Part shown: one piece after another, positions 1,405 to 61,775 of the stretch
How positions within the stretch are numbered: the first letter of the stretch is position 1
Layout of the letters: every line of letters begins with the position of its first letter
Assembly: GCA_937949725.1 (NCBI GenBank)
Contig: CALECT010000048.1
Coordinates: forward strand, 6,626 to 70,625
From: an uncultured Pseudanabaenaceae cyanobacterium
GTDB taxonomy: Bacteria; Cyanobacteriota; Cyanobacteriia; PCC-9006; JAAUQQ01
Direction of reading: 5' to 3'
Length of the DNA stretch: 64,000 bases
Notes under the pieces: generated by a model
Told to the model about the DNA's origin: nothing
What the model saw: only the letters and a program-made list of their open reading frames with translations
Databases searched by the model: none
Translations under genes and position numbers: made by a program

Positions 1405-1841
1405 TCAGGCGAAATTGACTAGGGGCTTTTTTATTTTCCCATGGGCGATCGCTTGGAAAATATTCAAACAGAACAGTAACTCTCAAATCATGGGACGATC
1501 ACCGATTTTCGGTATAAAAAAATACTCAACTGTAGGTTGATTGATGCACATAACTTAGCCGCAATTTTTATGGCTGTAATATTTTATGCTTCACCTGATG
1601 ACAAGTACTCTTACTATTCATTCACATAAGATTTCAACAAAATTAACCGAAATCTAGGTGTTCTCCACATACAATTCACACATGATTAATTAAGGGACCC
1701 TATTTATATATAGCTGAGACTGCTACAATTTGCCGACTACTTTTGTACTCCCAAACCCGTCACTTTGTGGTTTGAATTCTCTTGAAATCAATATCTTCAA
1801 ATGACTTTTGTAAGGAGCATTATCTGTTTTAACTTTTCGAA

Positions 1842-4457: not shown

Positions 4458-4461
4458 TGGA

Positions 4462-5397: not shown

Positions 5398-5416
5398 TCT
5401 TGCTATTGTCTAAATT

Positions 5417-11533: not shown

Positions 11534-11955
11534 AGCCAACTGTGTTGATCTCGGTGAGAGGTGGCGTTGATCGAGTGATGAAAATGCACAGAACAACGGA
11601 TGGGAGAGGGGGCTTGGCTAGGCGCTTGCTAGCGTTTCGCGGATTTCCTCTGACCAGTCCCAGACTCAAACGCCGGACAGGGTCCAGTTGGTAGATATAT
11701 GGTGTAACCCAAACGAATCATTCCCAGGGGGATGATGACGTTTAACAAAATTCAGGGAGTTCTCAGGTTGATGATTTAATTGCGGCTAGAAGCTAATTGG
11801 GATGGGCGTTTGAGGTGGTACTTTCCTGTTGCTAAAAGCTGGAAGCGTTGTGCGCCTGCTGCTGAAGGCAGCGATTTGCAGACCCTCTGGGCATCGATTA
11901 GCATGAAGGGGATTAAGCATTTCAGCTTGACGCCTTGAGCTGACAGGGAAAGCGC

Positions 11956-14850: not shown

Positions 14851-15019
14851 AAAAATTGCGTGAAAGCCAAAGGCGTAGAAAATGAAAACGCCCAACAAAA
14901 TATAGGGTTGTCTGTCTCGTTAAATATAGCTTACGAGCAACATATTTTACTACAGTTGAGATTCCAGACTTACTACTGCCACGCGATAACAAAATACTTG
15001 TTGGTTAGATTCGATAGCA

Positions 15020-31048: not shown

Positions 31049-32491
31049 GTGACTCGTTCTCCCCAGGAAATTTGGAACGCGGTATTAGAGCGACTTCAAG
31101 AGCAGCTCAGCCGACCCACCTTTGAAACTTGGATCAAAACTGCCAGCGCAGACAAGCTGGAGGGAAATTGCCTGCAAATCATTACTCCCAACCCCTTTGC
31201 TCGCAATTGGTTGCAGAAGTACTATCTAGCGACTATTTCTGATGCGATTTTTGAAACGCTGGGTGAGCACTTGGAGATCAAGTTTGTCGTAGCGAGTGCC
31301 GACAGTGACATTGCCGATGAGAAAGTGGGCAATGACCTCTGGGCTGCACCAGCCACCATGCCCCAGTCTTCCCCTATCAGTCAGCCCACTGCTGCAACGC
31401 CGCCACCGGAGCCCATGGTGGGCGATGCCAAGCGGGCGCGCCAAACGGCCCTAAATAATCGCTACGACTTCTCTCGCTTTGTTGTGGGTGCCAATAGCCG
31501 CATGGCCCATGCTGCTGCCCTGGCTGTTGCGGAGTCTCCTGGTCGTGAATTTAATCCGCTGTTTATCTGCGGCGGTGTTGGGCTGGGCAAGACTCACTTG
31601 ATGCAGGCGATTGGTCAGTATCGTTTGCAAATTGATCCCAACTCGCGCATTTTCTACGTCTCTACAGAGCAGTTCACCAATGATCTGATTACCGCCATTC
31701 GTCGAGATGGCATGCAAGCCTTCCGGGAGCATTATCGGGCTGCGGATGTGCTGCTGGTAGACGACATTCAGTTCATTGAAGGGAAGGAATATACCCAGGA
31801 AGAGTTTTTCTATACCTTCAATACTCTCCATGAATCGGGTAAGCAGGTGGTCCTGGCTTCGGACCGTCCGCCTAATCAGATTCCTCGCCTTCAGGAGCGC
31901 CTCTGTTCGCGCTTTTCCATGGGCCTGATTGCCGATATCCAGGCACCGGACTTGGAAACTCGTATGGCGATTCTGCAAAAGAAGGCGGAGTACGAGAACC
32001 TGCGACTACCTCGGGAGGCAATCGAATACATCGCCACCAATTACACCTCCAACATTCGTGAACTGGAGGGCGCCCTCACCCGCGCCGTGGCCTATATCTC
32101 CATTTCTGGGATGCCCATGACCGTTGAGAACATTGCCCCGGTGCTCAATCCGCCCAGGGAGCAGGTGGAAGTGTCTCCTGAAATCATCCTAGCCACGGTG
32201 GCTGAGACCTTTGGGGTGAGTATTGATGATTTGTTGAGTAGCTCCCGCCGTCGGGAGATTAGCCAGGCTCGCCAGGTCGCCATGTTCATGATGCGCCAGC
32301 ACACAGAGCTGAGCCTGCCGAAGATTGGCCAGGCCTTCGGAGGCAAGGACCATACGACGGTGATGTATAGCTGCGAGAAGATCTCAAAGCGTAAAGAAAC
32401 TGATACGCAGCTTCAATCTACGCTGCGGGACATTGATCAGCAGCTGTTTAATAACAGCCAGCTCCAGAGTGCTCCTCCCGCGAAGCGCTAG
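31049..32491 (+). CDS. dnaA: chromosomal replication initiator protein DnaA
   Basis: GTG start. N-terminus [14 protein letters not shown], Walker [16 protein letters not shown], and LLVDDIQF. The C-terminal DNA-binding domain has [18 protein letters not shown]...[13 protein letters not shown]. Confidence 0.97.
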
Positions 32492-34676: not shown

Positions 34677-35468
34677 TTACTCATCACTCAAAGCAGCCTC
34701 CCCATAAATGACATATGAGTGAGAGTAATACTTGTAAGCAGAGTAAATGAGTCCGCTCAACAACCAGTAGTTGATTCCACCAGAAACTGCCCCGCCTATA
34801 ATTGGAATCCAACCTACACCTATCTTGGCAGCCACTTTGGTTGTCACCTTTTGAACACCAGTACCAACCACTTTCGAGGCAATCTTGCCAGCCACTTTTG
34901 ACCCACTTTTGAGAGCTGTTTTCTTTAAGGCTACGCAAGTTACGTTACTAGCCACTTGACCAGCTATCTTGCCAGCGAACTTTGGTATACCCTTGGTACC
35001 AAGTTTCAGCACTACTTTGGGGGAGGACTTGACGCCCACCTTTCCAGAAATTGCTCCTCCGGGAGCCAAACTCAATTTCCTATAAGTTTTCCCGCTGTCT
35101 TCATCATAAACTTTTCCTTCAGGTGGGGAGTTTGTCGCGGAAGCTACGTCAGCCCAGATGGCAAGTATATGGTTCATATCAGAGAGAAAGTCAACCTCTC
35201 GATCTAAGATGTAGCCAACTCCCAAGCATGCCTGGGGAGCTACTTGTCTACACCAAAGCAAGTCAGCACCAACAGCAGCGACAGACCACCAGCCCCCTGT
35301 TAACCCTGCGGCGACACCACTAACAGAGACTGCAAGCAAATGTTCTCTTTCCCATTCTGGATAGCTGTATCGCCTAGCCTTCGCTTCCAGCTCCCGCCTC
35401 TCAGCAGCAAACATTCCTGAGCCCCAATCCCTAAACATTGAGGCCAACATCTCTTGTAATTCGTCCAT
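34677..35468 (-). CDS. EcsC-like membrane-associated protein
   Basis: 263 aa. It has a Gly-rich hydrophobic segment (VSGVAAGLTGGWWSVAAVGADLLW), repeated K-x-AGKIA-type basic stretches, and a C-terminal IGVGWIPIIGGAVSGGINYW. The family call is tentative. Confidence 0.5.
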   Translation of the reverse strand: MDELQEMLASMFRDWGSGMFAAERRELEAKARRYSYPEWEREHLLAVSVSGVAAGLTGGWWSVAAVGADLLWCRQVAPQACLGVGYILDREVDFLSDMNHILAIWADVASATNSPPEGKVYDEDSGKTYRKLSLAPGGAISGKVGVKSSPKVVLKLGTKGIPKFAGKIAGQVASNVTCVALKKTALKSGSKVAGKIASKVVGTGVQKVTTKVAAKIGVGWIPIIGGAVSGGINYWLLSGLIYSAYKYYSHSYVIYGEAALSDE

Positions 35469-43691: not shown

Positions 43692-45218
43692 TTAGCCCAG
43701 CAGTTGTTGCCACATGGTCATGACATCCCAGCGAGACTGGCTGGTGTTTTCTTCGTGGCGTTTCCAGAAGTCGGACCACCAGCCGGGGGGCTGATCTTTG
43801 GGGCCATCGTATTCGGTGGGGCGGTTGGTGTTGCCGCCGGTGACGAGGCTACCAACGTAGTCGGCATCGCTGTAGACCTGGGCAATTTGGTCGTTGATTT
43901 CGCGCATGTCGGCTTCGGAGACGACGCCGTTGCTGGTGGCTTTGTAGAACTGGACGGTGGCGCGGATGGGGAAGTTGGGGTCGCGTTCAATGGCGAGGTT
44001 ATCAATCTCAGTGAAGGGGCCTTCAACTTCGCCATGGCCAATAACGGCGGCTTCGACGTCGCTGCGTTCAAGCTTGGCTGATTCTTCCATGGGAGCTGAT
44101 GCCGATGGCATGGCCAGCATGTCGTTTTCCATGGCTCCACCCCAGAGTTGGCGAGGCTGCTCTTTTTGTTTGAGGGGGACTTGAATCATGACGACCATAT
44201 TGAGGCCATCTTTTTCGGTGGCGGCGGGCTGGTCTTCGCCACCGTTGCCCCGTCCATCGCCGTAGCGGTTGTAGTCGCTGAGGCGCTGGCCGGTGAAGCT
44301 GGCCCGCTCTCCATCCTTATTGAAAAATAAGCGTTGTCCCCAGCTCTGCCCGGCTTCAAAGCCATCGCGGGTGTTGTCGATGATGGTCATGCTGGTGCCT
44401 TCACGGGTGGCCATGATGGTGAGCACGGCGGGGTTTTCTTGGTAGGACTGGTAGTTGAAGAGGACGGGGTTGAAGGTGGCGTCGCCTGCTTGGGGGATGG
44501 GCAGGAATGCGGCTTGGGCGCTGGTGAGGACGTGGCTATCGCGGGGGGCGAGGAGGGAGTTGCGGCGGCCTTTCCAGGAGTCGGGTTCGTGGAGGTAGCT
44601 GCGCAGGTCGCCGAGGAGTTCTTTGAGGGAGACGCGCTCTAGGTCGTCGCCTTTTTCGTTGCCGACGAGGACGAAGAATTTGTCGAGGTCAATGTCGGCG
44701 GTTTCGTCGGAGAAGTTGGGTTTGCGAATGACGGGCATGAGGCTGAGGTTGTATTGCCCTGTTTCGGGGTTGCGCTGTTGGACTTGGATGGTCATGTCGC
44801 TGATGTTGGGGCCGACGGAGGAGTTTTTGTAGCGGCCGGTGTCTTCCCAGGTGACGTTGAGGATGTCGAGGCCGAAGTTGTCGGCGAGGCGTTGGGCAGC
44901 GCTGTTGCTGACCATGGATGCGGTTTTTTGGATGACGTTGGCGTAGCGGCGGTGGTTGGCGATGGCGAGGCGTTGTTCTGCGATTTCGACTTCGAGGACG
45001 TCGGTTGGCTTGTTGGCAGGATTTTGGGGTTCCACGCTTTCTGCCGCTGTGGTGTTCTCTTCGCTGTCGCTGACGATGCCCCAGCCTTGAGCGATTTGTG
45101 CATCAGCTTTCACGGGGCTGAGGGCCTGGCTGGGTGAGGAGAAGGCGGGGAGGAGGCTGAGGCCGAGGGCAAGGGCAAACCAGCGAGGAGCAGATGGAGA
45201 AGTCATGGCCAATTCCAA
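43692..45218 (-). CDS. secreted hypothetical protein
   Basis: 508 aa with signal peptide (M)TSPSAPRWFALALGLSLLPAFSSPSQA. I recognise no motif. The coding strand is C+A-rich, and many overlapping track ORFs here are artefacts. Confidence 0.6.
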   Translation of the reverse strand: MELAMTSPSAPRWFALALGLSLLPAFSSPSQALSPVKADAQIAQGWGIVSDSEENTTAAESVEPQNPANKPTDVLEVEIAEQRLAIANHRRYANVIQKTASMVSNSAAQRLADNFGLDILNVTWEDTGRYKNSSVGPNISDMTIQVQQRNPETGQYNLSLMPVIRKPNFSDETADIDLDKFFVLVGNEKGDDLERVSLKELLGDLRSYLHEPDSWKGRRNSLLAPRDSHVLTSAQAAFLPIPQAGDATFNPVLFNYQSYQENPAVLTIMATREGTSMTIIDNTRDGFEAGQSWGQRLFFNKDGERASFTGQRLSDYNRYGDGRGNGGEDQPAATEKDGLNMVVMIQVPLKQKEQPRQLWGGAMENDMLAMPSASAPMEESAKLERSDVEAAVIGHGEVEGPFTEIDNLAIERDPNFPIRATVQFYKATSNGVVSEADMREINDQIAQVYSDADYVGSLVTGGNTNRPTEYDGPKDQPPGWWSDFWKRHEENTSQSRWDVMTMWQQLLG

Positions 45219-45416
45219 TTCAATGGTAGCTTCAATGTATGTGGAGAAATACTGATGAGATGGCAGGTTTCGTTTTTTGAAACCGGGTATGGATATCCCA
45301 TCTGGACCAAACTCTCTCTGGGCTCTGGTTCATGTGACGTTTCCGCATTTGGCTCAGAGAGTAGGTCATTCTTCCTGGGAATATCGCTAGGATGAGGGTG
45401 ACGGTTTTGACTGAGC

Positions 45417-48400
45417 TTGGCGGGAGTGGCGGTTGTGGGGGAGCAGGTAGACACGGGGCGGGAGCAGGCGCTGCGGCTGATTGAGCAGGCTGCGGCTGAG
45501 GGGTGGACGGAGCTGGATCTATCTGAGATGGATTTGGTAGAGCTGCCTACTGAGATTGTTAACCTAACTCAGCTTGAGGTACTGATCTTAGGGAGAAAGA
45601 AACAGAAGACCCCTGAAGAGCAAATTACCGAGCTTGTATTTGATTTCCTATTCTCTTTGTTGCCCCCTATCATCGAAACTCTGAGGTCGCTGCAGGCAGA
45701 TTTCAGCAAAACTCAGTTATCCGAGGTGCCGGAAAGCATCGCGCAGCTGAGCAATCTACGAGTTCTTGACCTCAGAGGAACCCAGATATCGGAGTTACCG
45801 GAGAGCATCACACAGCTGAGCAATCTACAAGTCCTCAACCTCGGTTCATCTCAGATATCGGAGTTACCGGAGAGCATCACACAGCTGAGCAATCTACAAG
45901 TCCTCAACCTCGATTCAACTCAGATATCGGAGTTACCGGAGAGCATCACACAGCTGAGCAATCTACAAGTCCTCAACCTCGGTTCAACTCAGATATCGGA
46001 GTTACCGGAGAGCATCACGCAGCTGAGAAATCTACAAGTCCTCTACCTCGATTCAACTCAGATATCGGAGTTACTGGAGAGCATCACGCAGCTGAGCAAT
46101 CTACAAGTCCTCAACCTCGGTTCAACTCAGATATCGAAGTTACCGGAGAGCATCACGCAGCTGAGCAATCTACAAGCTCTCAACCTCGATTCAATTCAGA
46201 TATCGGAGTTACCGGAGAGCATCACGCAGCTGAGCAATCTACAAGTTCTCAACCTCGATTCAATTCAGATATCGGAGTTACCGGAGAGCATCACGCAGCT
46301 GAGCAATCTACAAGTTCTCAACCTCGATTCAACTCAGATATCGAAGTTACCGGAGAGCATCACGCAGCTGAGCAATCTACAAGTTCTCAACCTCGATTCA
46401 ACTCAAATCTCGGAGTTACCGGGGAGCATCACGCAGCTGAGCAATCTACAAGTTCTCGACCTCTCTTCAACTCAGATATCGGAGTTACCGGGGAGCATCA
46501 CGCAGCTGAGCAATCTACAAGTTCTCGACCTCTCTTCAACTCAAATCTCGGAGTTACCGGAGAGCATCACGCAGCTGAGCAATCTACAAGTCCTCTACCT
46601 TGGTTCAACTCAGATATCGGAGTTACCGGAGAGCATCACGCAGCTGAGCAATCTACAAGTTCTCAACCTCGGTTCAACTCAGATATCGAAGTTACCGGAG
46701 AGCATCACGCAGCTGAGCAATCTACAAGCTCTCAACCTCGATTCAACTCAAATCTCGGAGTTACCGGAGAGCATCACTCAGCTAACGAGTCTCCAATCCC
46801 TCAACCTCAGCGGAACGAAGATATCAGAGCTGCCCGAGAGCATCACTCAGCTAACGAGTCTCCAATCCCTCGACCTCAGCGGAACGAAGATATCAGAGCT
46901 GCCCGAGAGCATCACTCAGCTGACGAGTCTCCAATCCCTCGACCTCAGCGGAACGAAGATTTCCGAGCTGCCCGAGAGCGTCACTCAGCTATCGAGTCTC
47001 CAATCCCTCAACCTCAGCGGAACGAAGATATCAGAGCTGCCCGAGAGCATCATTCAGCTAACGAGTCTCCTCCAATCCCTCTACCTCAGCGGAACGAAGA
47101 TTTCCGAGCTGCCCGAGAGCGTTACTCAGCTATCGAGTCTCCAATCCCTCAACCTCAACAGTACGCAGATTTCTGAGCTGCCCGAGAGCGTCACTCAGCT
47201 ATCGAGTCTCCAATCCTTCAACCTCAGCGGAACGAAGATTTCCGAGCTGCCCGATAGCGTCACTCAGCTATCGAGTCTCCAATCCCTCAACCTCATGCAA
47301 ACTCAAATCTCGGTGTTTCCTGAGATTGTTACTCAACTCCCGAGTCTGCAAGAACTTGACCTTGATGGAACAGCAATCTCAAAACTGTCCGACAGCATTA
47401 GTCAGCTTACGAACTTGACCTCCCTTGATATAAGAAACACTCAAATATCAGAGCTACCCCAGAGCATTACTCAGCTCTCAGGTTTACAGTCTCTCTACCT
47501 TATGTCCTGCCGAATTTCCCAACTTCCCAACTGGTGGAAAACTTGGTCAACTCCTGCCTCAATAGGACTGAGCGGTAATCCATTACCGATTCCCGAGGCA
47601 CTCTTAAGCTCAACTGACCCTGATTCTTTGCAAGCTATTATTAATTTCTATTTCCAAACCCAAGACCCCGAAGCCAAACCTCTCTACGAAGCCAAACTCC
47701 TGATCGTCGGTGAGGGAGAAACCGGTAAAACCACCTTGGCTAAGAAGCTCCAAGACCGAGACTACAAACTTAAACTGATCGACAGCGACAATCCCGAAAA
47801 ATCCACCGAAGGCATCGACATCATTCAGTGGCAATTCGACCAAGCTGACGGCACCCCTTTCCGCGTCAACGTCTGGGACTTCGGCGGTCAGGAAGTCTAC
47901 CATGCAACCCACCAATTCTTCCTCACCAAACGCTCCCTCTATGCCCTCGTCGTCGATAACCGCCGCGAAAACCCCAACTTCTACTACTGGCTTAACGTTG
48001 TCCGCCTACTCAGTGACAACAGCCCCGTCTTCATCGTCAAAAACGAGAAACAAAACCGCCAGTGCGAAATTAACGAAGGTCAACTGCGAGCCGAATTCAA
48101 AAGCCTGATCAACCAAACCATCTGCGTCAATTTCGCCGAAAATCGGGGCCTCGACGAACTAGAGACCATGATCAAAACCCAAATGGTCCAACTCCCCGAA
48201 GTTCAACAGCCCTGGCCCCCCAGATGGGTGAGAATTCGCAACGTCCTCGAAAACTACGATCGCAACTACATCGACCTCGCCGAATACCTCACCCTCTGCA
48301 ACACCAACGGCGTCCCCGACAAAATCGAAGCTCTTCAGATCAGCGCTCAACTCCATGAACTTGGCATCTGCCTCCACTTCCAAAAAGAACCCGGCCTCAA

Positions 48401-50003
48401 ACAATACGTCATCCTCAAACCCGCCTGGGTCACCAACGCCGTCTATCAAGTCACCGACTACCCCAAAGTCAAAAACGACATGGGTCGCTTCAGCCAAGAT
48501 GATCTCGAAGACATCTGGAGCGACAGCGAATACGCAGAGTTGCGGGAAGAACTGCTTAGCCTGATGCAGATGCGAAAATTCAGCATCTGCTACCCCCTCA
48601 AAGACCGCCCCGACACCTACATCGTCCCCAGCCTGCTCTCCCATCAGCGTCCAACCTACGAATGGGACTACCAGCAAAACCTGATCCTGCGCTACGAATA
48701 CGGCTTTATGCCCAAGGGCATCATTCCCCGGCTCGTCGTCGAAATGCATCGCTACATTGAAGACAGCCCTCGCCCAGAATCGCCAGAGGAACAGGCAGAA
48801 AAAATTGGCCTCGTCTGGAAAACGGGCGTTATCCTACGCGATGGCGACGCCCGCGCCCAGGTCGTCGAAACCTACGACAGACGCGAAATCACCATTCACG
48901 TTTCAGGCCATCAGCGTAAGCAACTGCTCTACTACATCCGCTACGAACTGCGACAAATCCACGACACCTATCCCAACCTGGACTACCAAGAATTTATTCC
49001 CTGCAACTGCGAACAGTGCGACGGTTCCGAGCACCCCTACACCTACCGTCTCAGCGACCTAGAACGTCGCCTCACGAACCAACGCTACGAAGTGGAATGC
49101 GAGAAAAGCTACGACATGGTCAGCGTCCAGCGCTTAATCAGTGACGTCATCATTGAGCCAGAATTGCAGCGCGATCACTGGGGCTTGGAGAATGATGCAG
49201 GGTTTTCCGACATCAACATCAGCATCAACCAATCTAGCGATGATCACCGCGACCTGAGCAAAACCTTCAACCAAACCAACAGCGGCGGCACCAACTTTCA
49301 AAACAACATCAGCGGTGGCAAAGTCAACCAAGCTAAAGCAATCAACCTCAACCCCAACGCATCAGCAGATGCCCATACACCCAACGCCGACGCCCGCACC
49401 ATCCTTTTCCTCGCCTCCAACCCCAAACAAACCGGCAGACTCCGCCTCGACCAAGAACTGCGCGAACTCGACGAAAGCCTCCGCCGCGCCCAACGCCGCA
49501 GCCAATTCAAACTCGAAAACAAAGGTGCCATCCGCACCCGTGACTTCACCCGCGCCCTCCTCGACATCAACCCCCACATCGTCCACTTCTCCGGCCACGG
49601 CAAAGACAGCACCGCCTCCAACGACAGCCGCCCCCCCGAGTCAGAACACCAACCTCTTCAAGGACTCCTCTTCGAAGACGAAACCGGCAACCCCCAACTC
49701 GTCAGTGGCGAACAACTCGCCGATGTCTTCGAACTCTTCGCCGACCAAGTCGAATGCGTCCTAATCAACGCCTGCCACTCCCACAACCAGGCCGACGCCA
49801 TCGCCCAACATATCCCCTACGTCATCGGCATGAACCGCCCCATCTCCGACAAAGGCGCGATTGAATTTGCCATTGCCTTCTACGACGCCATCGGCGCAGG
49901 CCGCGACATCCCCTTCGCCTTCAAACTCGCCCGCACCCAACTCACCCACCGGGGCGAAAAAGACATCCCTCAGTTGTGGAGCAATAGTTCCAGCGCATCC
50001 TAA
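45417..50003 (+). CDS. ROCO protein: LRR array + Roc GTPase + COR + C-terminal caspase/CHAT-like domain
   Basis: 1528 aa. About 26 LRRs span 45747-47543. The Roc domain has G1 LLIVGEGETGKTTLAKKL (about 47709-47737), G3 VWDFGGQE and a degenerate G4 (VKNEKQ). The COR-like region has RWVRIRNVLENYDRNYIDLAEYLTLC...LHELGICLHFQ. The C-terminal domain (from about 49401) has a His-Cys dyad: IVHFSGHG (His 49596-49598) and VLINACHS (Cys 49773-49775). The start is ambiguous (TTG 45417, GTG 45426 or GTG 45435). Confidence 0.85.
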   Translation: MAGVAVVGEQVDTGREQALRLIEQAAAEGWTELDLSEMDLVELPTEIVNLTQLEVLILGRKKQKTPEEQITELVFDFLFSLLPPIIETLRSLQADFSKTQLSEVPESIAQLSNLRVLDLRGTQISELPESITQLSNLQVLNLGSSQISELPESITQLSNLQVLNLDSTQISELPESITQLSNLQVLNLGSTQISELPESITQLRNLQVLYLDSTQISELLESITQLSNLQVLNLGSTQISKLPESITQLSNLQALNLDSIQISELPESITQLSNLQVLNLDSIQISELPESITQLSNLQVLNLDSTQISKLPESITQLSNLQVLNLDSTQISELPGSITQLSNLQVLDLSSTQISELPGSITQLSNLQVLDLSSTQISELPESITQLSNLQVLYLGSTQISELPESITQLSNLQVLNLGSTQISKLPESITQLSNLQALNLDSTQISELPESITQLTSLQSLNLSGTKISELPESITQLTSLQSLDLSGTKISELPESITQLTSLQSLDLSGTKISELPESVTQLSSLQSLNLSGTKISELPESIIQLTSLLQSLYLSGTKISELPESVTQLSSLQSLNLNSTQISELPESVTQLSSLQSFNLSGTKISELPDSVTQLSSLQSLNLMQTQISVFPEIVTQLPSLQELDLDGTAISKLSDSISQLTNLTSLDIRNTQISELPQSITQLSGLQSLYLMSCRISQLPNWWKTWSTPASIGLSGNPLPIPEALLSSTDPDSLQAIINFYFQTQDPEAKPLYEAKLLIVGEGETGKTTLAKKLQDRDYKLKLIDSDNPEKSTEGIDIIQWQFDQADGTPFRVNVWDFGGQEVYHATHQFFLTKRSLYALVVDNRRENPNFYYWLNVVRLLSDNSPVFIVKNEKQNRQCEINEGQLRAEFKSLINQTICVNFAENRGLDELETMIKTQMVQLPEVQQPWPPRWVRIRNVLENYDRNYIDLAEYLTLCNTNGVPDKIEALQISAQLHELGICLHFQKEPGLKQYVILKPAWVTNAVYQVTDYPKVKNDMGRFSQDDLEDIWSDSEYAELREELLSLMQMRKFSICYPLKDRPDTYIVPSLLSHQRPTYEWDYQQNLILRYEYGFMPKGIIPRLVVEMHRYIEDSPRPESPEEQAEKIGLVWKTGVILRDGDARAQVVETYDRREITIHVSGHQRKQLLYYIRYELRQIHDTYPNLDYQEFIPCNCEQCDGSEHPYTYRLSDLERRLTNQRYEVECEKSYDMVSVQRLISDVIIEPELQRDHWGLENDAGFSDINISINQSSDDHRDLSKTFNQTNSGGTNFQNNISGGKVNQAKAINLNPNASADAHTPNADARTILFLASNPKQTGRLRLDQELRELDESLRRAQRRSQFKLENKGAIRTRDFTRALLDINPHIVHFSGHGKDSTASNDSRPPESEHQPLQGLLFEDETGNPQLVSGEQLADVFELFADQVECVLINACHSHNQADAIAQHIPYVIGMNRPISDKGAIEFAIAFYDAIGAGRDIPFAFKLARTQLTHRGEKDIPQLWSNSSSAS
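45747..47543 (+). repeat. in-frame 69-bp tandem repeat array (26 units) encoding 23-aa LRRs
   Basis: Units 1-15 (45747-46781) encode LSNLQVLNL(G/D/S)STQISELPESITQ with very high nucleotide identity. Units 16-22 (46782-47336) form a second subfamily, L(T/S)SLQSLNLSGTKISELPES(I/V)TQ. One unit is 72 bp (LTSLLQSLYL). Units 23-26 are more diverged. Confidence 0.95.
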
Positions 50004-50658
50004 TTGGGCTCAGTCGCTGACAGAGGCTGACTATAACAACTCCAAAAACAGTCATCAGTCCCCCTCGTTTGAGTCATCTGATTGAATATCTTGGCCAGCC
50101 TGAGCCCCCTCGCTCTCGGCATTGGCCTGCACCTGAAAGCCAGTGGCATCGCCGGCGTTTTGCTGTCCAAAGGAAGGGGTTAACTTCACACCCATTAAGG
50201 TAAACCCCAGCACTTCGATCCGCGTAGCGATAGCCCCACAGATCAAACCAGCCCAGAGAAATGCTAGGCACCCCCAATACGCACCATCCCAGAATCTATG
50301 GACCGCTAGGTTGGGAGGGGGGAATCTATAGGGGGAAGCAGTCGGCCCCCTTTGGCGGGCCAGAAAACAACTGCGGAGGGCTGGCCCTCATGGATTTGAG
50401 GCTGTTGGCTTTGAGGCTGCCTGGATTTGAGGTCGTTGGCTTTATCGCAGTGAGACAGAGTTTCCAAACGGTTCAAACAAAACCTACCCGTTATTCCCCA
50501 CATTGCCAATCCTCCGCAAAAACGCGGCATTTTCCTCTGGACGATGCTCTGTTTTACTTCCTGGGAATCTTAAATCTACTGGGTCACTCTATCTATATGC
50601 GGCTTCACCGCCAACCAAATCTCGGCTTTACCGCCTGCCAATATTTCCTTTGTTCCCT

Positions 50659-52305
50659 ATGCAACTCTCTCTCTCGGTTTGGCAGCAACTGCGCCGTCGT
50701 GAACTCTCCTGTCAAGCTGCATTGTCGCTGCTCGTGGATGAAGCGGGGGACGTGAGCTTGCCATTGCTGGATGGGGAGGTGAGTCAACGTTTCTTTCGGG
50801 AGTTTCAGCAGCCTCAGCTACTGCCGCCGCTCTTGCCCCTGTTGCTTTGGCAAAACTGCTATTACGTGGGCTCGCCAGTGACGTTGGATGAGCCAGTGCT
50901 GGCTGGGCTGCGCGCAAGCCTGCTGACTGAACTGCGTATTATTCCAATCAATGAGAAGAGCTATCGCACTTGGTTTCACAGCCAGAATGCAGACCCCAGT
51001 GGTATTAGTGCTGAACCGTTGGTGAATCCCATTACGGGAGAGACGGAACAGGAGGATATTGGTGAGGTTACGGAGCTATATTTAGCCCAGGCTGCGGACC
51101 AGATGGGGCGGCTGAATACGATTATTTCCGGAGCTTTGCGTAATCGGGCGAGTGATATTCATTTGGAACCGGGGCTGGATGGGCTGCGGGTGCGTTATCG
51201 CATTGACGGGGTTCTGCGGGACATTACAACACTGCCGCGAGAGCTGAATCGCCGCGTGATTGCGGCGCTGAAGGTGATGGCAGAAATGGATATTTCCGAG
51301 AGTCGGCGGCCCCAGGATGGTCGCATTGGTCAGCAGTACAGTAGCCAAACTGAGGCTCCGGTGGGGCTGGATATGCGGGTGAGTACTTTGCCCTGTATGG
51401 GCGGTGAGAAGGCGGTGATTCGGTTGCTGCCCCAACAAAATCCGTTTGAGTCTTTAGAAGATTTAGGCTTTGAGCCAGAGCCTCTGGAAATTTTTCAAGG
51501 TTGGCTGTCTCAGCCCCAGGGCATGGTGGTGCTGACGGGGCCAACGGGGTCGGGGAAGACGAGTACGCTGTATACGAGCTTGCAGGCGATCGCCCAGGAA
51601 TCGGTCAACGTCGTCACCGTAGAAGATCCTGTCGAATACGTTCTACCTCGCATCACCCAAACCCAGGTCCAAGAAAAAGCCGGCATGACCTTCTCGGCTG
51701 GCCTACGAGCAATTCTGCGCCAAGACCCCGATGTGATTATGGTGGGGGAGATTCGCGATGAGGCGACGGCAGAGACGGCGGTGCGGGCGGCTCTAACAGG
51801 ACATCTTGTACTGACAACTTTGCATACGAATGATGCGGTGAGTACGATTCCTCGGTTGAAGGATGTGGGGCCAGATCCGGGCTTGCTGAGTGATGCGCTG
51901 TTGGGGATTGTGGGGCAGCGGCTGGTGCGGCGGGTTTGCCCCCATTGTGCAACGCCTTATATGCCGACAGAGCGGGAATTGCGATCGCTCCATTTATCCC
52001 CCAAGGATGCCAATCTAAGCCAGTGGCGTAAGGGGCGGGGATGCCACCGCTGTTTTTATTCAGGGTATTTGGGACGGGAGGCGATCGTGGAACTGCTGGA
52101 TGTGGATGATGCGGTGCGGCGCTTGATCTATAAGGGAGATCAAGAAGCCTTGCAGGATCACCTCTTGAAAATTGGCTTTTACTCGTTCAGGGAATCGGCA
52201 CTGATGAAAGTTTGCCAAGGCAAGACGACTTCGGAGGAGGTGCTGCGGGCTTTGCCTCGTAGTGCATTGGAGCAGCCTCAGGTCATCGAGGCTTCACCCG
52301 CTTAA
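50659..52305 (+). CDS. GspE/PilB-family secretion ATPase
   Basis: Walker A LTGPTGSGKTSTLYTSL, Asp box DPDVIMVGEIRD, His box GHLVLTTLHTNDA, and a tetra-Cys motif CPHC...CHRC. ATG 50659 is preferred over the track start at 50503. Confidence 0.85.
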   Translation: MQLSLSVWQQLRRRELSCQAALSLLVDEAGDVSLPLLDGEVSQRFFREFQQPQLLPPLLPLLLWQNCYYVGSPVTLDEPVLAGLRASLLTELRIIPINEKSYRTWFHSQNADPSGISAEPLVNPITGETEQEDIGEVTELYLAQAADQMGRLNTIISGALRNRASDIHLEPGLDGLRVRYRIDGVLRDITTLPRELNRRVIAALKVMAEMDISESRRPQDGRIGQQYSSQTEAPVGLDMRVSTLPCMGGEKAVIRLLPQQNPFESLEDLGFEPEPLEIFQGWLSQPQGMVVLTGPTGSGKTSTLYTSLQAIAQESVNVVTVEDPVEYVLPRITQTQVQEKAGMTFSAGLRAILRQDPDVIMVGEIRDEATAETAVRAALTGHLVLTTLHTNDAVSTIPRLKDVGPDPGLLSDALLGIVGQRLVRRVCPHCATPYMPTERELRSLHLSPKDANLSQWRKGRGCHRCFYSGYLGREAIVELLDVDDAVRRLIYKGDQEALQDHLLKIGFYSFRESALMKVCQGKTTSEEVLRALPRSALEQPQVIEASPA

Positions 52306-52729
52306 GGGACTTCCAAGGAATAAAGCATCCGCAGTCAAACCGTTCCAACAGAGCTGCATTCAACTCTTGCCAGTTTGGCTTCGCTTGGCTGCTGTGAGCT
52401 AAAGTTCACAGCTCAAAGCTCAAGTCCGTTAAAACGGACTGAAAATCCCTAGGCGCTTGGATTTCAGCCCACTTTAGTGGGCTTTCGCTCTTAGCCTGAG
52501 GATTGATCCCCAGGCGTTTCGGCGAGGAATTCCAATCGCTATCAGACCAAGGTTGGGATGCTTTATTTCTGGGACCTCCCTAATTTGCCTTTTACAACAA
52601 CTTTCATGGGATTGGCTTGTCCGACTTCTGAGGTGGAGATTGTGAACAAATATGCCAACTGCGTTGCATCGCTCCGGTGCCGAAACCAAGCTAAGTAGAG
52701 GTTAATTCCAGAACGGAGAGCTTGTCAGC

Positions 52730-54223
52730 ATGGCTAAGAAGAAAGGGAAAAAGCGAGCATCCAAGTCTTCTTCTGGTCAAAGCCGCTCTGGTGGTGGTTT
52801 TGGCACTAAGCAAAACTTTGAGCAAGAGATCAATAAAGTTAAGCGACTGCTGAGCCGAGCGGAAGATCAAGCTGTTCTCGATTATCTCCAAGAATTGACC
52901 CAGCGTTATCCCGGCCAAGCCGAGCTGCTAGAGCTTCAGATGACGATCGCCGCAGAGCTTCAGGAAGGGCTCACCTGCGGCAAAGCAGCTGCGCAGCTGC
53001 TGGAGCTAGATCCCAACCATGGCGATGGCCTCTACATTATGGCCAGCATGGCATTGCAGAAAATCCATCCCGTCTTGGCCTGGCATTTGAGCCAGCGAGC
53101 CCTGGCCCAGGATGACGAACACCCAATGACTGAAGGGATTCTGGCAGTGATGGGGAAGATTGAAGAAGGCCTGGATGAACTGGTGGCTGAGGTTGAGGGC
53201 CTGCCTCGGGAGGAGGCCATTGAACTCCTGATTAACCATGAGTGGGGGCAGTTGTATCTGGGCTGGGGGGAGTATGAGAAATGCAAGGCTGCAGAACTCA
53301 GGGTCATTGCCCAAAAGCCTGACTTTATGCCCGCTTACAACAACCTCAGCTTAATTGCCCTGACAACTGGGGATGTGGAGGAGGCAATCGTCCAGGCCGA
53401 AAAAGTCCTTAGCTTCGAGCCCGAGAATGTTCATGCCCTCGCCAATCTCATCCGCTATTGCTTTCTACAGGGCCAGCCGGAGCAGGCCCAACCGTTTGGT
53501 GAGCAGCTTAAAGCCAGCCAGGCTGATGCTTGGGACCCTTACACCAAGAAGATTGAAGGCTTGACTTATTTGGGCGATACGGCGGGCGTTTTGGAGATTT
53601 GGCAGCAGGCTGAGGCTGCGGGAGAAGCTTCCTCTGATTTATTGGGAGGTGTGGTTTTCCATTGGGTCGCCGTGGCCCAGGCGAGAATGGGGAATCTCAC
53701 AGTGGCGAAACAACTCTGGAGAGAAGCGCTGAAGCGATCGCCAGATCTAAAGCTGGCCCAGGCAAATTTGGATGACTTGCTTCTACCGCTGGGCCAACGC
53801 AATGGGCCATGGGAGTTTGAAGGTCACGATTGGATGTCTCCACCGCTGCAAACGGGCCTTCTGGAGATCCTGTCGTCTCTGAGCAAAAATAGTGATGACC
53901 CCCGCTTTTTGCCTAAAGCATTTCATCGGCTTTGCGCAGACTATCCAGGCTTGACGACCTGGCTCGAAACGATGCTCACGCGAGGGGATTTGTTTGGGCG
54001 GCAGATGGCAGTGGAGTTGATTAAAGAGGTGCGATCTCCTGAGCTTTTAGACATCCTCAAATCGTTTGCCCTTAGCGCCCATGGTCCTGATCGTTTGCGT
54101 AATCAAGTGGCAGAATTCTTGGTGGAAGAAGATGTGCTGACGTCGGGAAATATTCCTATGTGGTCTAATGGGGAGCAAACAAATGTGGCTCTGTCGGAAT
54201 TTTCAAATGCATGCAGCGTGTGA
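52730..54223 (+). CDS. TPR-like helical-repeat protein (hypothetical)
   Basis: 497 aa. It has a Lys/Ser-rich N-terminus followed by TPR-like helical pairs (AELRVIAQKPDFMPAYNNLSLIAL, AIVQAEKVLSFEPENVHALANL). Confidence 0.6.
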   Translation: MAKKKGKKRASKSSSGQSRSGGGFGTKQNFEQEINKVKRLLSRAEDQAVLDYLQELTQRYPGQAELLELQMTIAAELQEGLTCGKAAAQLLELDPNHGDGLYIMASMALQKIHPVLAWHLSQRALAQDDEHPMTEGILAVMGKIEEGLDELVAEVEGLPREEAIELLINHEWGQLYLGWGEYEKCKAAELRVIAQKPDFMPAYNNLSLIALTTGDVEEAIVQAEKVLSFEPENVHALANLIRYCFLQGQPEQAQPFGEQLKASQADAWDPYTKKIEGLTYLGDTAGVLEIWQQAEAAGEASSDLLGGVVFHWVAVAQARMGNLTVAKQLWREALKRSPDLKLAQANLDDLLLPLGQRNGPWEFEGHDWMSPPLQTGLLEILSSLSKNSDDPRFLPKAFHRLCADYPGLTTWLETMLTRGDLFGRQMAVELIKEVRSPELLDILKSFALSAHGPDRLRNQVAEFLVEEDVLTSGNIPMWSNGEQTNVALSEFSNACSV

Positions 54224-54230
54224 GTTCACG

Positions 54231-54563
54231 TTAGGTGGATGAGTTTGGGCTGGGCCGATTGCGCTTGAAGCCGTTGCCGTAGACGATGATTTCGACGCCG
54301 CCTTCGACAACTGATGGGTTGGCGATTTTGACGCCGATGACGCCGTCGTAGCCTTTGGTTTTGGCTTTTTGTTCGAGTTCTTTGAGGGCGTCGTCGAGGG
54401 CGGTGCTGATGAGTTGTTCGTAGTGGACCATGCGTCCGCCGGTGAGGTTTTTGAGGTTTTCGCGGATGTCGTTGACGACGTTGGCGGCGCGGATGATGAC
54501 GACGGTGAGGAGTTCGCCGATTTCTAGGTTGGGGTCGGGGGAGTGGTCGAGGCTGATGAGCAT
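54231..54563 (-). CDS. YbjQ-family (UPF0145/DUF74) protein (paralog B)
   Basis: [51 protein letters not shown]...[29 protein letters not shown] is highly similar to 37893-38213. Start ATG 54563; the track extension to 54710 runs through a dispersed repeat. Confidence 0.85.
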
Positions 54564-54957
54564 AGTGAGCGGTGCCTTGGCTGTTGAGTGCTTGGCTTGG
54601 TTCCCCGCTCCTTTAGGAGAGGGGCTAGGGGAGAGGATGTCTTGTCTCTTGTTGGTTTGGGTTTGAGCTTGGCTTGTCCGAGCCGCAAATCCGTGGGGAA
54701 CTCTCCCCACACCCCAGCCGTAGGGACGGAAGGCCGTCCCTGACGGGTCACCCTCGCTAATGTTTGGGTTGCTTCACCTAAAGATTACTTGGCGTTTGAC
54801 CAACTGAGGAACGTTCAAATTTAAAGGACTATGCGGGAGCGGATTGGGTCTTTACCAAATGCTTGACGCCAACAGATCAACTGCTCCTCCCATTTTCCAA
54901 GGGGAGGCTGGGAGGGGTGGATTTCGATTCCGGCTAGCTGATGGTCTAAGCTTCATC

Positions 54958-56841
54958 TCAGTCTTTAGGCTCGATGGTGTTTTTGCTTGCTCTGAGTTGA
55001 GCAAGCTTCTGGCGGATGGTGAGGATTTGGCGGTAGAACCAGAGACCGATCGCCAACAACAGCAACAAGCCCCCTACAATCCCTGCGCCCAGTAATCCAA
55101 TGGACAACCCACCATATTTGGTCAGGACGAGTTGCCAGGCGATCGCCCCTACAGCAACTGGCATAGCACTCTTCAACAAGTCCACAACACTCGACGGTTG
55201 CTGCCAAAACTGTATCGCAGCGTTGATGTCTTGGCTTTGGACGATGTGGGTCATAGCTTCGGCGTTTTTGATGGTGGCGGAGCCGTTGTCGAGGAGGTAT
55301 TTGATCAGGTCGTTGGCGTCACTTTGTTGGAGGTCGGTGATGTAGCCGGAGAGGCGTTGGAGATCTTGGGCGGTGACGTGGGTGGTGAGTTGGATGAGGT
55401 TGGGGGTGGCGATGGTGAGCAGTCTGCGAATGTCGCTGTTGTTGAGCAGGGATAGTTTGGCGATCGCAGTGGCATCATCCAGGCTGAGGATGTCTAGCAG
55501 TAGTGAACGATCCAATCCATCGCGGGATAGATGCTTATACAGCTCTAGCTCGACGACTTGATTAATCTGGTTTCCGGCTAGCTCGCTCCAGGCGACGGCT
55601 TCGGGGATGCTGCCGGTGGTTTTGATGATGTCGCGGCTGCTGGGGGGTAGGGTGAGAGCCTGGGCAAAGCTGCCGTCTTGGATGGCGGCGATGAGGTTGC
55701 GGCGGCCCATGTTGTCGAGGGCGATGCCGACGAGGGCGGTGATGCTGGCTAGGTCAGTTGTGTCACCAAGTAGGGCTTGGAATTCGGGAAGGTCTTCGGC
55801 GAGGGTGAGGGTTTCGCGGTAGTCCTTTTGGAAGTCGAGCCAGTTGGCGTAGAGGTCGGTGGCGATTTCGCGGGCGATTTGGGGGGATTCGCCGCCGATG
55901 TCCTGTTCGATGCTGTTGCTAATGGCGTTGCGGAGGGTTTGCTTGACGATGGGGGATTGCAGTTGGCTTTCGATTTCGCTGAAGGAACCGGAGAAGCTTT
56001 GGGCCAGGTCGGAGACGATGAGGGCGCCGCCGAGGATTTCGCCGACGAGGGGCAGGGCAGTGGTGCCGAGGCGACCGAGGACTCTGCCGCTAAGTTGGGA
56101 GAAGACGCGTTTGGCCATGCCTCGGGTGACGCGGCGGGTGATTTGGGCGATCGCAATACTGGTAACGCCGCCTGCTGCCAGGCCGTAGGAGCTGATGTAT
56201 TTGCGGCTTTCGGGGGAGAAGCTGGTGATGATGTCGGCGGCGCTGGCTTCGGCGGTGGCGTCGGTGCGTTGGTCGAAGCGGTCGAGGAAGGTTTGGGAAT
56301 ATTGGCCGCTGATAAAGGTTTGCAGGCAGCTCATGCCGTAGGAGGCGGATTGAACGGTGGCGAGTTCGATTTCATCGGCGAGCTGTTGGCTGACGTTGTC
56401 GGCGAGTTTTTGCAGGGCGGTTTGGAGGGTGGGGTCGTTGAAGGTGGCGGTGGTGATGCGATCGCCCAGTTCCTCTGCTTTGCTGGGGCTCCAACTGCTG
56501 GCGAATTTGTCGAGGAGTTTGGTGTCGCCTTGGAGGGTGGCGACGGCTTGGCTAGCGGCGTTGTCAATCTTGCTGTCGAGGTTGAGGAGTTGCCATTGGC
56601 GATTGACTTGGGCCTGGAAATCAAAGTGGGTTTCGTTGTCGAAGAAGCCCTGGATGGTGCGGGTGAGTTCGGGGCGCAGTTCGGCTTCGCTGATGGCTTG
56701 GCATTGCTCTGGGGTGATGCTGCTGCTCTGACCGGTCTCTGGGCTGGTGAGGACGGCGGCGTAGGCGAGGCTGGGCTGGAGCCAGAGACTTAGGGCCAGG
56801 AGAAAGGCGATGAGCTTTTGGCCAGGGAGAGGCAGCAACAT
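54958..56841 (-). CDS. large signal-peptide / C-terminal TM protein of unknown function (paralog B, GC-rich copy)
   Basis: 627 aa. It has a signal peptide (LIAFLLALSLWLQPSLAYA) and a C-terminal TM segment (LSIGLLGAGIVGGLLLLLAIGLWFY). Collinear with 36029-37903. The many overlapping track ORFs on both strands are skew artefacts. Confidence 0.8.
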   Translation of the reverse strand: MLLPLPGQKLIAFLLALSLWLQPSLAYAAVLTSPETGQSSSITPEQCQAISEAELRPELTRTIQGFFDNETHFDFQAQVNRQWQLLNLDSKIDNAASQAVATLQGDTKLLDKFASSWSPSKAEELGDRITTATFNDPTLQTALQKLADNVSQQLADEIELATVQSASYGMSCLQTFISGQYSQTFLDRFDQRTDATAEASAADIITSFSPESRKYISSYGLAAGGVTSIAIAQITRRVTRGMAKRVFSQLSGRVLGRLGTTALPLVGEILGGALIVSDLAQSFSGSFSEIESQLQSPIVKQTLRNAISNSIEQDIGGESPQIAREIATDLYANWLDFQKDYRETLTLAEDLPEFQALLGDTTDLASITALVGIALDNMGRRNLIAAIQDGSFAQALTLPPSSRDIIKTTGSIPEAVAWSELAGNQINQVVELELYKHLSRDGLDRSLLLDILSLDDATAIAKLSLLNNSDIRRLLTIATPNLIQLTTHVTAQDLQRLSGYITDLQQSDANDLIKYLLDNGSATIKNAEAMTHIVQSQDINAAIQFWQQPSSVVDLLKSAMPVAVGAIAWQLVLTKYGGLSIGLLGAGIVGGLLLLLAIGLWFYRQILTIRQKLAQLRASKNTIEPKD

Positions 56842-61007: not shown

Positions 61008-61775
61008 CTAAAGTGAGCTTTGTACTAGAGGTTTGATTGCTTGGAAAAAATATAGCTCCCAGTTTAGATAATATTTATCTTCAATGATTTCATATCCCAG
61101 ATATTCTTGGATTCCTTTAAGGATGTCGCTTTCACTAGCTTGATCAATACCGAATAAAAGCCGACAAAAATCTATCATTTCGAGAAGGCTTTCAAATATC
61201 CAATAAAATTTGATTGATTCGTCGTGAGTGATCTTAAACCCAATAGAGGAGAGTGTCTCAGCTGTCGCCTCTGTCAAGAAGTCTCCCTGGTGTCCCATTG
61301 AACTATTTTGATTGACGAAGGTATTTAGGAAGCCATCCACTTCCGAATCTTTTCTGACATCAGCAAGGCAGAAAACACCAGTCGGCTTAAGAATCCGATG
61401 TACCTCATTATAAAAAATATGTTTGTCTTCTAGATGATGGGAGCCTGCTAGGCTAATAACTCGATCAATCGTATTGGATAATAGGGAGATATTTCCTAGA
61501 TCTTCACAGATGAGAGCTGTTTCATTTGGATGGGACTGAGCACATTGCATAAATTCAGCAGACGTCTCGATGGATAACAACTTAACCTTAGGGTTAAGAA
61601 AAGTACTGATGTAGGATCCACCAGAGGGAATATCACACAGGATTTGGCCGGCTTCTAATTTTGCGAATTGAATCGCATAATCAAATTCCGATTTCCGAGC
61701 CCATGGGTATTTCAACATAGCCTGGTGGTACATCTTCCCCCGCTGATTAAATATTTCTGGATAGGTATAAAACAT
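61008..61775 (-). CDS. class I SAM-dependent methyltransferase
   Basis: 255 aa. Motif I-like ILCDIPSGGSY, followed by acidic and post-I motifs (LLSIETS..., VISLAGSHHL, LKPTGVFCLADV). Confidence 0.65.
   Translation of the reverse strand: MFYTYPEIFNQRGKMYHQAMLKYPWARKSEFDYAIQFAKLEAGQILCDIPSGGSYISTFLNPKVKLLSIETSAEFMQCAQSHPNETALICEDLGNISLLSNTIDRVISLAGSHHLEDKHIFYNEVHRILKPTGVFCLADVRKDSEVDGFLNTFVNQNSSMGHQGDFLTEATAETLSSIGFKITHDESIKFYWIFESLLEMIDFCRLLFGIDQASESDILKGIQEYLGYEIIEDKYYLNWELYFFQAIKPLVQSSL

Follow-up and report, generated by a model that had tools for sequence, protein, structure and literature searches.

Domain architecture of the gene at 45417-50003

The window analyzed here is a 64,000-nucleotide stretch of contig CALECT010000048.1 from an uncultured Pseudanabaenaceae cyanobacterium, and one gene on its forward strand (45417-50003) encodes a large protein that joins leucine-rich repeats (LRRs), a Roc-COR core, and a C-terminal CHAT domain. 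The order of the domains is ~28 LRRs, Roc, COR-A, COR-B, a disordered tether of ~75 residues, and a compact CHAT domain. An initial annotation of the locus, made from the sequence alone, had described an LRR-Roc-COR protein fused to a caspase/CHAT-like domain; the open reading frame (ORF) and all motifs quoted there are present as described, and the fusion is supported by Pfam, PADLOC, and a fold model. Translation from TTG 45417 gives 1528 amino acids (aa). The true start is probably GTG 45426, with a product of 1525 aa, because the called start of the closest homolog, P0001 ("MAVVGEQ", N-terminus MAVVGEQIETGREQALRLIEQAAAEGW), aligns at this codon. P0001 is encoded at 604-3492 of locus L006, which comes from a sibling sequencing run and has another genomic context, beside a Uma2 gene. 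The protein studied here is longer than all of its 120 closest homologs, whose maximum is 1380 aa. Exact-sequence database look-ups with both the TTG-start and the GTG-start proteins returned no record, and promoter, terminator, and Rfam scans of 44900-50700 gave nothing above background. The features of the gene are as follows, with the evidence for each in brackets; dS is synonymous divergence and pLDDT is the predicted local distance difference test.

45417-50003 (+): complete coding sequence of the LRR-Roc-COR-CHAT protein, 1528 aa from TTG 45417 (ORF list)
45426-45755 (+): N-terminal cap with 2-3 irregular LRRs and a ~35-aa insertion (repeat layout, third-position composition, dS of 0.21 against the P0001 gene)
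45756-47345 (+): array of 23 phased 23-aa LRRs, a 69-bp tandem repeat (Tandem Repeats Finder, repeat finding, repeat table)
47346-47651 (+): 3-4 degenerate C-terminal LRRs and the LRR C-terminal cap (sequence layout, Pfam LRR families)
47694-48092 (+): Roc (Ras of complex) G domain (Pfam Roc and Ras, motif conservation in 121 sequences, PDB matches)
48216-48638 (+): COR-A (Pfam PF16095, aa 934-1074, E = 1.5e-41)
48675-49145 (+): COR-B, including a conserved C-terminal CxCxxC...C element (Pfam PF25497, aa 1087-1243, E = 3.6e-42)
49002-49100 (+): four-cysteine cluster C1196, C1198, C1201, and C1228 at the end of COR-B (homolog motif count, alignment)
49161-49385 (+): disordered low-complexity tether, aa 1249-1323, with motif FNQTNSGGTNFQNNISGGKVNQ (pLDDT below 50 in the AlphaFold model)
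49386-49982 (+): compact CHAT (caspase-haemoglobinase fold) domain (Pfam, PADLOC, AlphaFold2, Foldseek)
49596-49598 (+): codon of the predicted catalytic His1394, the second His of HFSGHG (invariance, strand position in the AlphaFold2 model)
49773-49775 (+): codon of the predicted catalytic Cys1453, the Cys of LINACHS (invariance, strand position in the AlphaFold2 model)

Overlapping Pfam LRR models cover roughly aa 35-740. The central part (aa 114-643) consists of 23 perfectly phased 23-aa repeats, with ~5-7 irregular repeats on the flanks, and the earlier estimate of about 26 LRRs was a fair one. Two sub-types of repeat are present, namely, LSNLQVLNLxSTQISELPESITQ and LTSLQSLxLSGTKISELPESxTQ. 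At the DNA level, the array is a 69-bp tandem repeat with 17.6 + 7.6 copies and ~90% identity between neighboring copies. The copy number depends on a single assembly, because the primary metagenome contigs (ENA assembly ERZ6864376) are interrupted at the array: on one side, L007 breaks off near window position 44950, and on the other, L001 covers 47097-54638 at 99.85% identity, the LRR-to-Roc junction included. Short-read assemblers thus break at these 69-bp repeats. The N-terminal cap has strongly G-rich third codon positions, and a homolog search with the cap alone gave four weak matches only. P0001 has the same cap and only ~4 LRRs, far fewer than found here.

Differences between the repeats cluster at positions 3, 5, 7, and 8, which are the x residues of LxxLxLxx. 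In a crude comparison with non-independent pairs and few sites, the pooled nonsynonymous divergence (dN) was 0.65 and the pooled dS was 0.46 at these four positions (dN/dS ~1.4), whereas the corresponding values at all other positions were 0.09 and 0.58 (dN/dS ~0.16). In LRR structures, these residues are found along the concave surface; variation of this kind would be expected if a binding surface had diversified while its scaffold was conserved. A reading of the protein as a secreted type III effector was considered and rejected; the NCBIfam scores for XopL, XopAE, XopAC, and a fibronectin-binding protein are all far below cutoffs and reflect LRR similarity only.

The Roc domain was matched by Pfam Roc (aa 760-877, E = 2e-22) and Ras (E = 1.6e-6). 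The P-loop (G1, GEGETGKT at aa 765), the switch I Thr797, and the G3 motif DFGGQ (aa 821) are intact and invariant in 121 aligned Roc domains. The G4 motif is KNEKQN (aa 875-880, with NEKQ at aa 876), where the Roco proteins of Chlorobium tepidum (CtRoco) and Methanosarcina barkeri (MbRoco) have NKID. This motif had been called degenerate. However, among the 121 Roc sequences, N876 and E877 are present in 121/121 each, K878 in 119, and Q879 in 106, and KNEKQ is followed by Asp in 83 sequences and by Asn in 18, this one among the latter. The alignment thus points to KNEKQ as a conserved variant and a hallmark of the whole cyanobacterial clade rather than a product of decay, and its conservation across the clade argues for a functional motif.

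Roc, COR-A, and COR-B are contiguous over aa 760-1243 in the Pfam mapping, which is the arrangement that defines ROCO proteins. In the PDB, this region is homologous to the Roc-COR regions of M. barkeri Roco2 (4WNR, E = 6e-55), CtRoco (3DPU/6HLU/8R4B, E ~1e-45), and LRRK2 (E = 1e-22). COR-B was modeled with a block mean pLDDT of ~76-96, mostly at least 83. Near its end, IPCNCEQCDG (aa 1194) and ECEKSYDMVSVQRLI (aa 1227) carry a CxCxxC...C pattern that was found in 119/120 homologs, and none of the four Cys varies in an alignment of 43 sequences. The segment had been taken for a Cys-rich linker; instead, the Pfam envelope, the high model confidence (block mean pLDDT ~83-96), and the invariant Cys identify it as the structured, conserved end of COR-B. 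The four Cys are possibly a metal-binding knuckle.

The low-complexity spacer noted previously is real. In the AlphaFold model of aa 740-1528, which has a mean pLDDT of 81, residues 1249-1323 (model residues 510-584) are below 50, and this segment of ~75 residues is modeled as what would be a flexible tether. The tether motif FNQTNSGGTNFQNNISGGKVNQ also precedes CHAT in the small EAD1-CHAT proteins P0122 and P0123. Following the tether, aa 1324-1522 match Pfam CHAT (E = 2.5e-12; score 47 bits, gathering cutoff 24) over positions 81-282 of the 289-position profile, a compact version of the domain. The PADLOC "chat" model also matches (1.7e-17). An AlphaFold2 model of the C-terminal 213 residues, made with 19 homologous tails, reached a pLDDT of 88 and a predicted template modeling score of 0.85. 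The best Foldseek match of this model in the PDB is the CHAT domain of the activated SAVED-CHAT filament (8TL0; E = 1e-13, TM 0.74, 24% identity; phmmer 2.8e-13), followed by caspase-9, caspase-4, caspase-11, caspase-7, Csx29, MALT1, and DdvA (E = 3e-5 to 1e-3 for caspase-9/-4/-7, Csx29, and MALT1). No SAVED domain was found by Pfam, and the PADLOC SAVED_CHAT match (1e-5) is confined to CHAT (profile positions 285-443).

Similarity to the caspase fold and a conserved His-Cys pair had both been anticipated for this domain, and both were found. HFSGHG starts at aa 1390 and NACHS at aa 1451. His1394 (model residue 79) lies just past strand 73-77, and Cys1453 (model residue 138) lies just past strand 132-136; this placing of His and then Cys at strand ends matches clan CD peptidases. 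Both residues are invariant in 27/27 Roc-COR-CHAT tails (this protein and 26 homologs) and in alignment A1. The 27 tails fall into two CHAT clades that share only ~24% identity.

Effector exchange and mosaic history

Among the best 120 Roc-COR homologs, 27 have CHAT tails and 34 have TIR, and others have EAD-type tails or a second Roc-COR. This tally reflects Pfam assignments, and single-linkage clustering of the post-COR tails gave one merged cluster. Swapping of the C-terminal effector, which the initial annotation had raised, is thus seen among these homologs. Small standalone CHAT, EAD1-CHAT, and TIR-CHAT proteins share 55-70% identity with the CHAT tail, whereas the CHAT tails of other Roco proteins (P0001 excepted) share 40-46% and ~24% with it. 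Furthermore, the EAD1-CHAT proteins have the same FNQTNxGGxNFQNNI motif directly upstream of CHAT. Because of this tail identity and common upstream motif, the linker and CHAT can be seen to form a shared cassette.

The comparison with P0001 provides stronger evidence for modular assembly. Amino acid identity to P0001 is 84-92% in Roc, 62-78% in COR, 22-39% in aa 1187-1280, and 94-100% in CHAT, except for 78% in the window that holds a loop insertion of this protein. The dS values along the two genes are as follows.

N-terminal cap: dS 0.21
Roc: dS 2.66
COR: dS 1.97
Linker motif: dS 0.64
CHAT: dS 0.15

Both ends were thus recently shared with the P0001 gene while the core dS is saturated, and this contrast indicates an exchange of modules by recombination: the gene is a recombinant mosaic, in which the cap, the Roc-COR core, and the linker-CHAT cassette have different histories. 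The modular assembly that was suggested in the initial annotation is in this way supported.

The original argument for modular assembly had been a change of codon usage along the gene. The change itself is real. The third-position (C-G)/(C+G) is -0.94 in aa 1-46, lies between about -0.1 and +0.2 across the LRR array, rises to values of +0.4 to +0.9 in Roc-COR, and reaches +0.9 to +1.0 in linker-CHAT; the third-position composition differs between LRR and Roc-COR (chi-square p = 1e-17). The step at the COR-B/CHAT junction is moderate (p = 0.008). As proof of modular assembly, however, the codon shift alone was rejected as insufficient, and the dS mosaic is the stronger evidence. The codon argument is weak because the LRR part is one 23-codon unit amplified ~23 times, because the unrelated neighbors 43692-45218 and 54958-56841 have the same C-rich, G-poor bias, and because this gene shows no sharp break between COR-B and CHAT. 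In the P0001 gene, the linker-CHAT jump is sharp (third-position C from ~0.35 to 0.63-0.72, and G down to 0.03-0.07), which fits a cassette of separate origin.

Third-position composition shows further patterns in and around these genes. A 5'-to-3' gradient from G-rich to C-rich third positions was observed in this gene and in two homologs from other genomes: in the P0001 gene (L006 604-3492), G falls from 43% to 3-7%, and in the P0023 gene (L004 8001-11189), which belongs to an AT-rich genome, the gradient is milder (G from 0.25 to 0.07). The two neighboring ORFs 43692-45218 (-), which has a signal-peptide-like N-terminus, and 54958-56841 (-) have no Pfam or PADLOC match, and their third-position C of ~0.61 and G of ~0.12 are like those of the Roc-COR-CHAT part. 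The genes interleaved between them (50503-52305 and 52730-54223) have the opposite bias, with G of 0.35-0.41. The bias tracks the coding strand and not the replication strand. Long antisense ORFs (e.g., 55777-56793 and 48159-48749) are a by-product of this bias.

Genomic setting and other features of the window

The genes near the ROCO gene encode a seryl-tRNA synthetase, an M50 protease, endonuclease III, YgjP, a T2SSE/PilB-type ATPase, and a TPR protein. Its flanking genes are those of a secreted 508-aa protein without known family (transcribed divergently), YgjP, the T2SSE ATPase, and the TPR protein. A dnaA gene is present at 31049-32491 (+; Pfam Bac_DnaA, E = 4.9e-66), ~14 kb from the ROCO gene, which places the window on the chromosome. 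The 500-bp intergenic region between the ROCO and T2SSE ATPase genes contains a 15-bp tandem repeat (3.5 copies, 50391-50443); this region is ~73% conserved in a related metagenome-assembled genome (MAG) and has no Rfam match.

The loci of two homologs have different neighbors. In Pseudanabaena sp. ABRG5-3, P0023 is surrounded by several toxin-antitoxin genes and adjoins an nSTAND1-WD40 protein of 1702 aa (L004 12818-17926), a conflict-gene neighborhood that is unlike the ROCO gene's own window. A 244-aa unannotated ORF upstream of P0023 has no gasdermin or other substrate match. P0049 has cell-wall gene neighbors that are unrelated to those of P0023. Because the homolog loci have unrelated neighbors, the protein gives the impression of a system complete in one gene, whose substrate is not linked to it.

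Elsewhere in the window, there are candidate defense or conflict genes and a further CHAT gene. The gene at 12937-14898 (-) encodes an AbiA-like defense reverse transcriptase (PADLOC AbiA/DRT, E = 1.5e-85; no Pfam match) and is AT-rich, with a GC content of 0.35 compared with ~0.55 for most genes; it is probably a horizontally acquired defense islet beside a Uma2 gene. An AT-rich block of three genes at 1842-6388 (+; GC content 0.37-0.39) encodes a dynamin-family GTPase (871 aa), a YjcZ-like protein, and a patatin-like phospholipase with weak PADLOC "phospholipase effector" matches, and this block may be another acquired conflict module. The 8942-11596 (-) gene encodes an 884-aa TPR-CHAT protein whose CHAT domain is full-length (E = 2.8e-68). 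Weak matches to the PADLOC candidate defense proteins PDC-S30 (3e-9) and mad2 (3e-8) were found at 34677-35468 (-) and 61008-61775 (-), respectively.

Relationship to known systems and proposed function

Proteins of this plan have been cataloged in bacteria. Rapidly evolving N-terminal LRRs followed by an AP-GTPase (Roc) and COR, with a C-terminal slot that holds at least 24 different domains (TIR, caspase, trypsin, and EADs among them), were predicted to be counter-invader systems of multicellular or filamentous bacteria, with multiple paralogs per genome (Kaur et al., eLife 2021, PMC8195603, Fig. 6D). The protein described here has the same plan without essential difference and is a member of this AP-GTPase class. 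Diversifying N-terminal LRRs on AP-GTPase-COR are apparent from the 69-bp array, the variation at the x positions, and the LRR number compared with that of P0001, and a variable C-terminal effector is apparent across the best 120 homologs. Apart from other members of the class, this protein has an unusually long array of ~28 LRRs and a housekeeping context.

One biochemically characterized relative is a gasdermin-activating enzyme of Runella zeae, labeled "Roc-COR-CHAT" (Johnson et al., bioRxiv 10.1101/2021.06.07.447441; later Science). Cleavage of the Runella gasdermin and the resulting toxicity need the catalytic His and Cys of the protease, and 43/50 bacterial gasdermin genes adjoin a protease gene in that study. 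Both proteins have Roc-COR and then a CHAT domain with His/Cys, and the Runella protease is part of a cell-death pathway. However, the Runella protease gene adjoins its gasdermin, whereas no linked gasdermin was found here among the flanking genes and the other window ORFs scanned. The novelty implied in the initial annotation was thus overstated, since the architecture was already described in both of these works, and the protein is a well-documented further member. Our literature search turned up no experimental test of an LRR-Roc-COR-CHAT protein in phage defense and no experimental anti-phage role of bacterial Roco proteins.

Other systems share parts of this design. CtRoco (3DPU, 6HLU, and 8R4B) and MbRoco2 (4WNR) have the same LRR-Roc-COR layout and are models for nucleotide-dependent dimer/monomer cycling; GTP-driven monomerization is described for CtRoco (PMC11052575). 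These proteins have a canonical G4 motif (NKID) and no enzymatic effector after COR-B, whereas the protein studied here has KNEKQN and a CHAT cassette. SAVED-CHAT of type III CRISPR-Cas (8TL0), the closest solved structure to the C-terminal domain, is a caspase-fold protease activated by sensor-driven assembly, but its sensor is the filament-forming, cyclic-oligoadenylate-binding SAVED domain, and it lacks LRR, Roc, and COR. Small cyanobacterial EAD1-CHAT, TIR-CHAT, and standalone CHAT proteins (e.g., P0121-P0123, P0126, and P0182) have a CHAT domain like the one here but lack LRR-Roc-COR; presumably, they are recruited to a separate sensor via EAD-EAD contacts, which have been described (Kaur et al., 2020, PMC7159879), or are TIR-driven. 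Eukaryotic ROCO proteins (LRRK2 and DAPK1) have the Roc-COR core in common with this protein, and their output is a kinase. STAND NLRs likewise combine a repeat sensor, an NTPase switch, and a death effector, but their switch is an NB-ARC or NACHT STAND ATPase. No STAND family (NB-ARC, NACHT, or nSTAND) was matched in the Pfam scan of this protein, in which the switch is a Ras-like Roc, and the NLR resemblance is an architectural analogy only and not a matter of membership.

Taking these comparisons together, we hold with moderate confidence that the gene, a recombinant mosaic, encodes a single-polypeptide, NLR-like, GTPase-based conflict or immune sensor of the AP-GTPase class. By analogy with CtRoco and with caspase/CHAT enzymes, a plausible course of events would run from LRR sensing through a change in Roc-COR to activation of the CHAT protease. 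In the resting state, the LRRs would be folded back on Roc-COR, and the nucleotide state would set the oligomeric arrangement via COR-B. Binding of an invader- or stress-derived ligand to the LRRs would then shift the Roc nucleotide cycle and the quaternary state. Such a shift may bring the tethered CHAT domains into an active arrangement. The active CHAT could cleave one or more cellular targets in trans, and the infected cell would arrest its growth or die.

Several observations weigh against this proposal. The setting consists of housekeeping genes and is not a defense island, and the 3' end of the gene together with the downstream ATPase and TPR genes is syntenic in an uncultured Pseudanabaenaceae MAG at 84-89% nucleotide identity. 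Pfam and PADLOC found no gasdermin or candidate substrate in 20 ORFs (19 of the window and one of locus L004), and none was found beside the two homologs P0023 and P0049. Guanine specificity cannot be assumed for the Roc domain, because its G4 motif is without the canonical Lys and Asp of NKxD. The crude nature of the repeat dN/dS comparison and the reliance of the LRR copy number on one assembly should be counted here as well.

The first alternative is that the protein is a protease of non-immune signaling or of development, like HetF-type CHAT proteins or the orthocaspases of filamentous cyanobacteria, with LRRs that bind an endogenous partner. We regard it as unlikely. The chromosomal housekeeping context with synteny kept in the related MAG would suit such a role, as would the second CHAT protein in the window (TPR-CHAT, 8942-11596) and the numerous CHAT proteins in this genome. 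However, a hyper-repetitive LRR array that varies on its binding face, the swapping of CHAT, TIR, and EAD effectors on one scaffold, mosaic recombination, and homolog neighborhoods that are not conserved are features of conflict systems (PMC8195603) and are unexpected of a fixed housekeeping pathway.

It is rather improbable that the protein is a gasdermin-activating protease of the Runella type, with its gasdermin gene at some other place in the genome and membrane pores as the outcome of activation. This possibility draws on the sole experimentally characterized Roc-COR-CHAT protein, which cleaves a bacterial gasdermin, on the LRRs of some gasdermin-associated proteases (bioRxiv 10.1101/2021.06.07.447441), and on the match to the PADLOC "chat" model. 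However, the pair is normally linked, and here no gasdermin-like or PADLOC-positive gene flanks the ORF and no gasdermin is present among the window ORFs scanned; the two homolog loci have different, unrelated neighbors.

Very improbable is a CHAT domain that acts only as an oligomerization or adaptor module, or only in self-processing (e.g., by a cut in the tether), and not as a trans-acting executioner. The closest relatives of the cassette do include TIR-CHAT fusions, in which TIR is a possible effector, the CHAT domain is compact, and a long disordered tether lies directly upstream of it. Nevertheless, the invariance of His1394, Cys1453, HFxGHG, and LNxC over two clades of ~24% identity argues for retained catalysis. 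SAVED-CHAT and Csx29 also cleave other proteins. The same is true of the Runella protease, whose substrate is another protein (bioRxiv 10.1101/2021.06.07.447441).

An assembly artifact, in which a chimera or an inflated array was joined through the 69-bp repeats to give the long ORF, is hardly credible. In its favor, the primary contigs are interrupted at the array, look-ups with either start found no record of the exact protein, and P0001 shares the cap with only ~4 LRRs. However, the frame is open across 4.6 kb through repeats that differ by ~10%, L001 independently confirms 47097-54638 with the LRR-to-Roc junction, P0001 independently has the cap, LRR, Roc, COR, CHAT order, and the architecture is common in isolate genomes such as that of Pseudanabaena sp. 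ABRG5-3. Realistically, copy number alone is at stake, and not the architecture.

With the conflict-sensor function as the favored reading, the discovery remains incremental, since the architecture is cataloged and one relative is biochemically characterized. The recombination mosaic, the bias of repeat variation toward the binding face, and the clade-wide KNEKQ G4 motif are new here and are modest additions. A broader and only tentative possibility is that cyanobacterial LRR-Roc-COR receptors form a recombining repertoire, in which cap and LRRs, Roc-COR, and linker-effector units are swapped between paralogs or strains, the clade-wide KNEKQ switch is perhaps not guanine-specific, and the orphan CHAT acts on cellular targets without a gasdermin. 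If the predicted function is true, bacteria would have in this one protein a compact equivalent of the scheme by which eukaryotes link a repeat sensor through an NTPase switch to a caspase, and its Roc-COR core is also that of the Parkinson's disease kinase LRRK2. A tractable bacterial Roc-COR protein with an easily assayed protease output could then report how Roc-COR signals to an effector domain.

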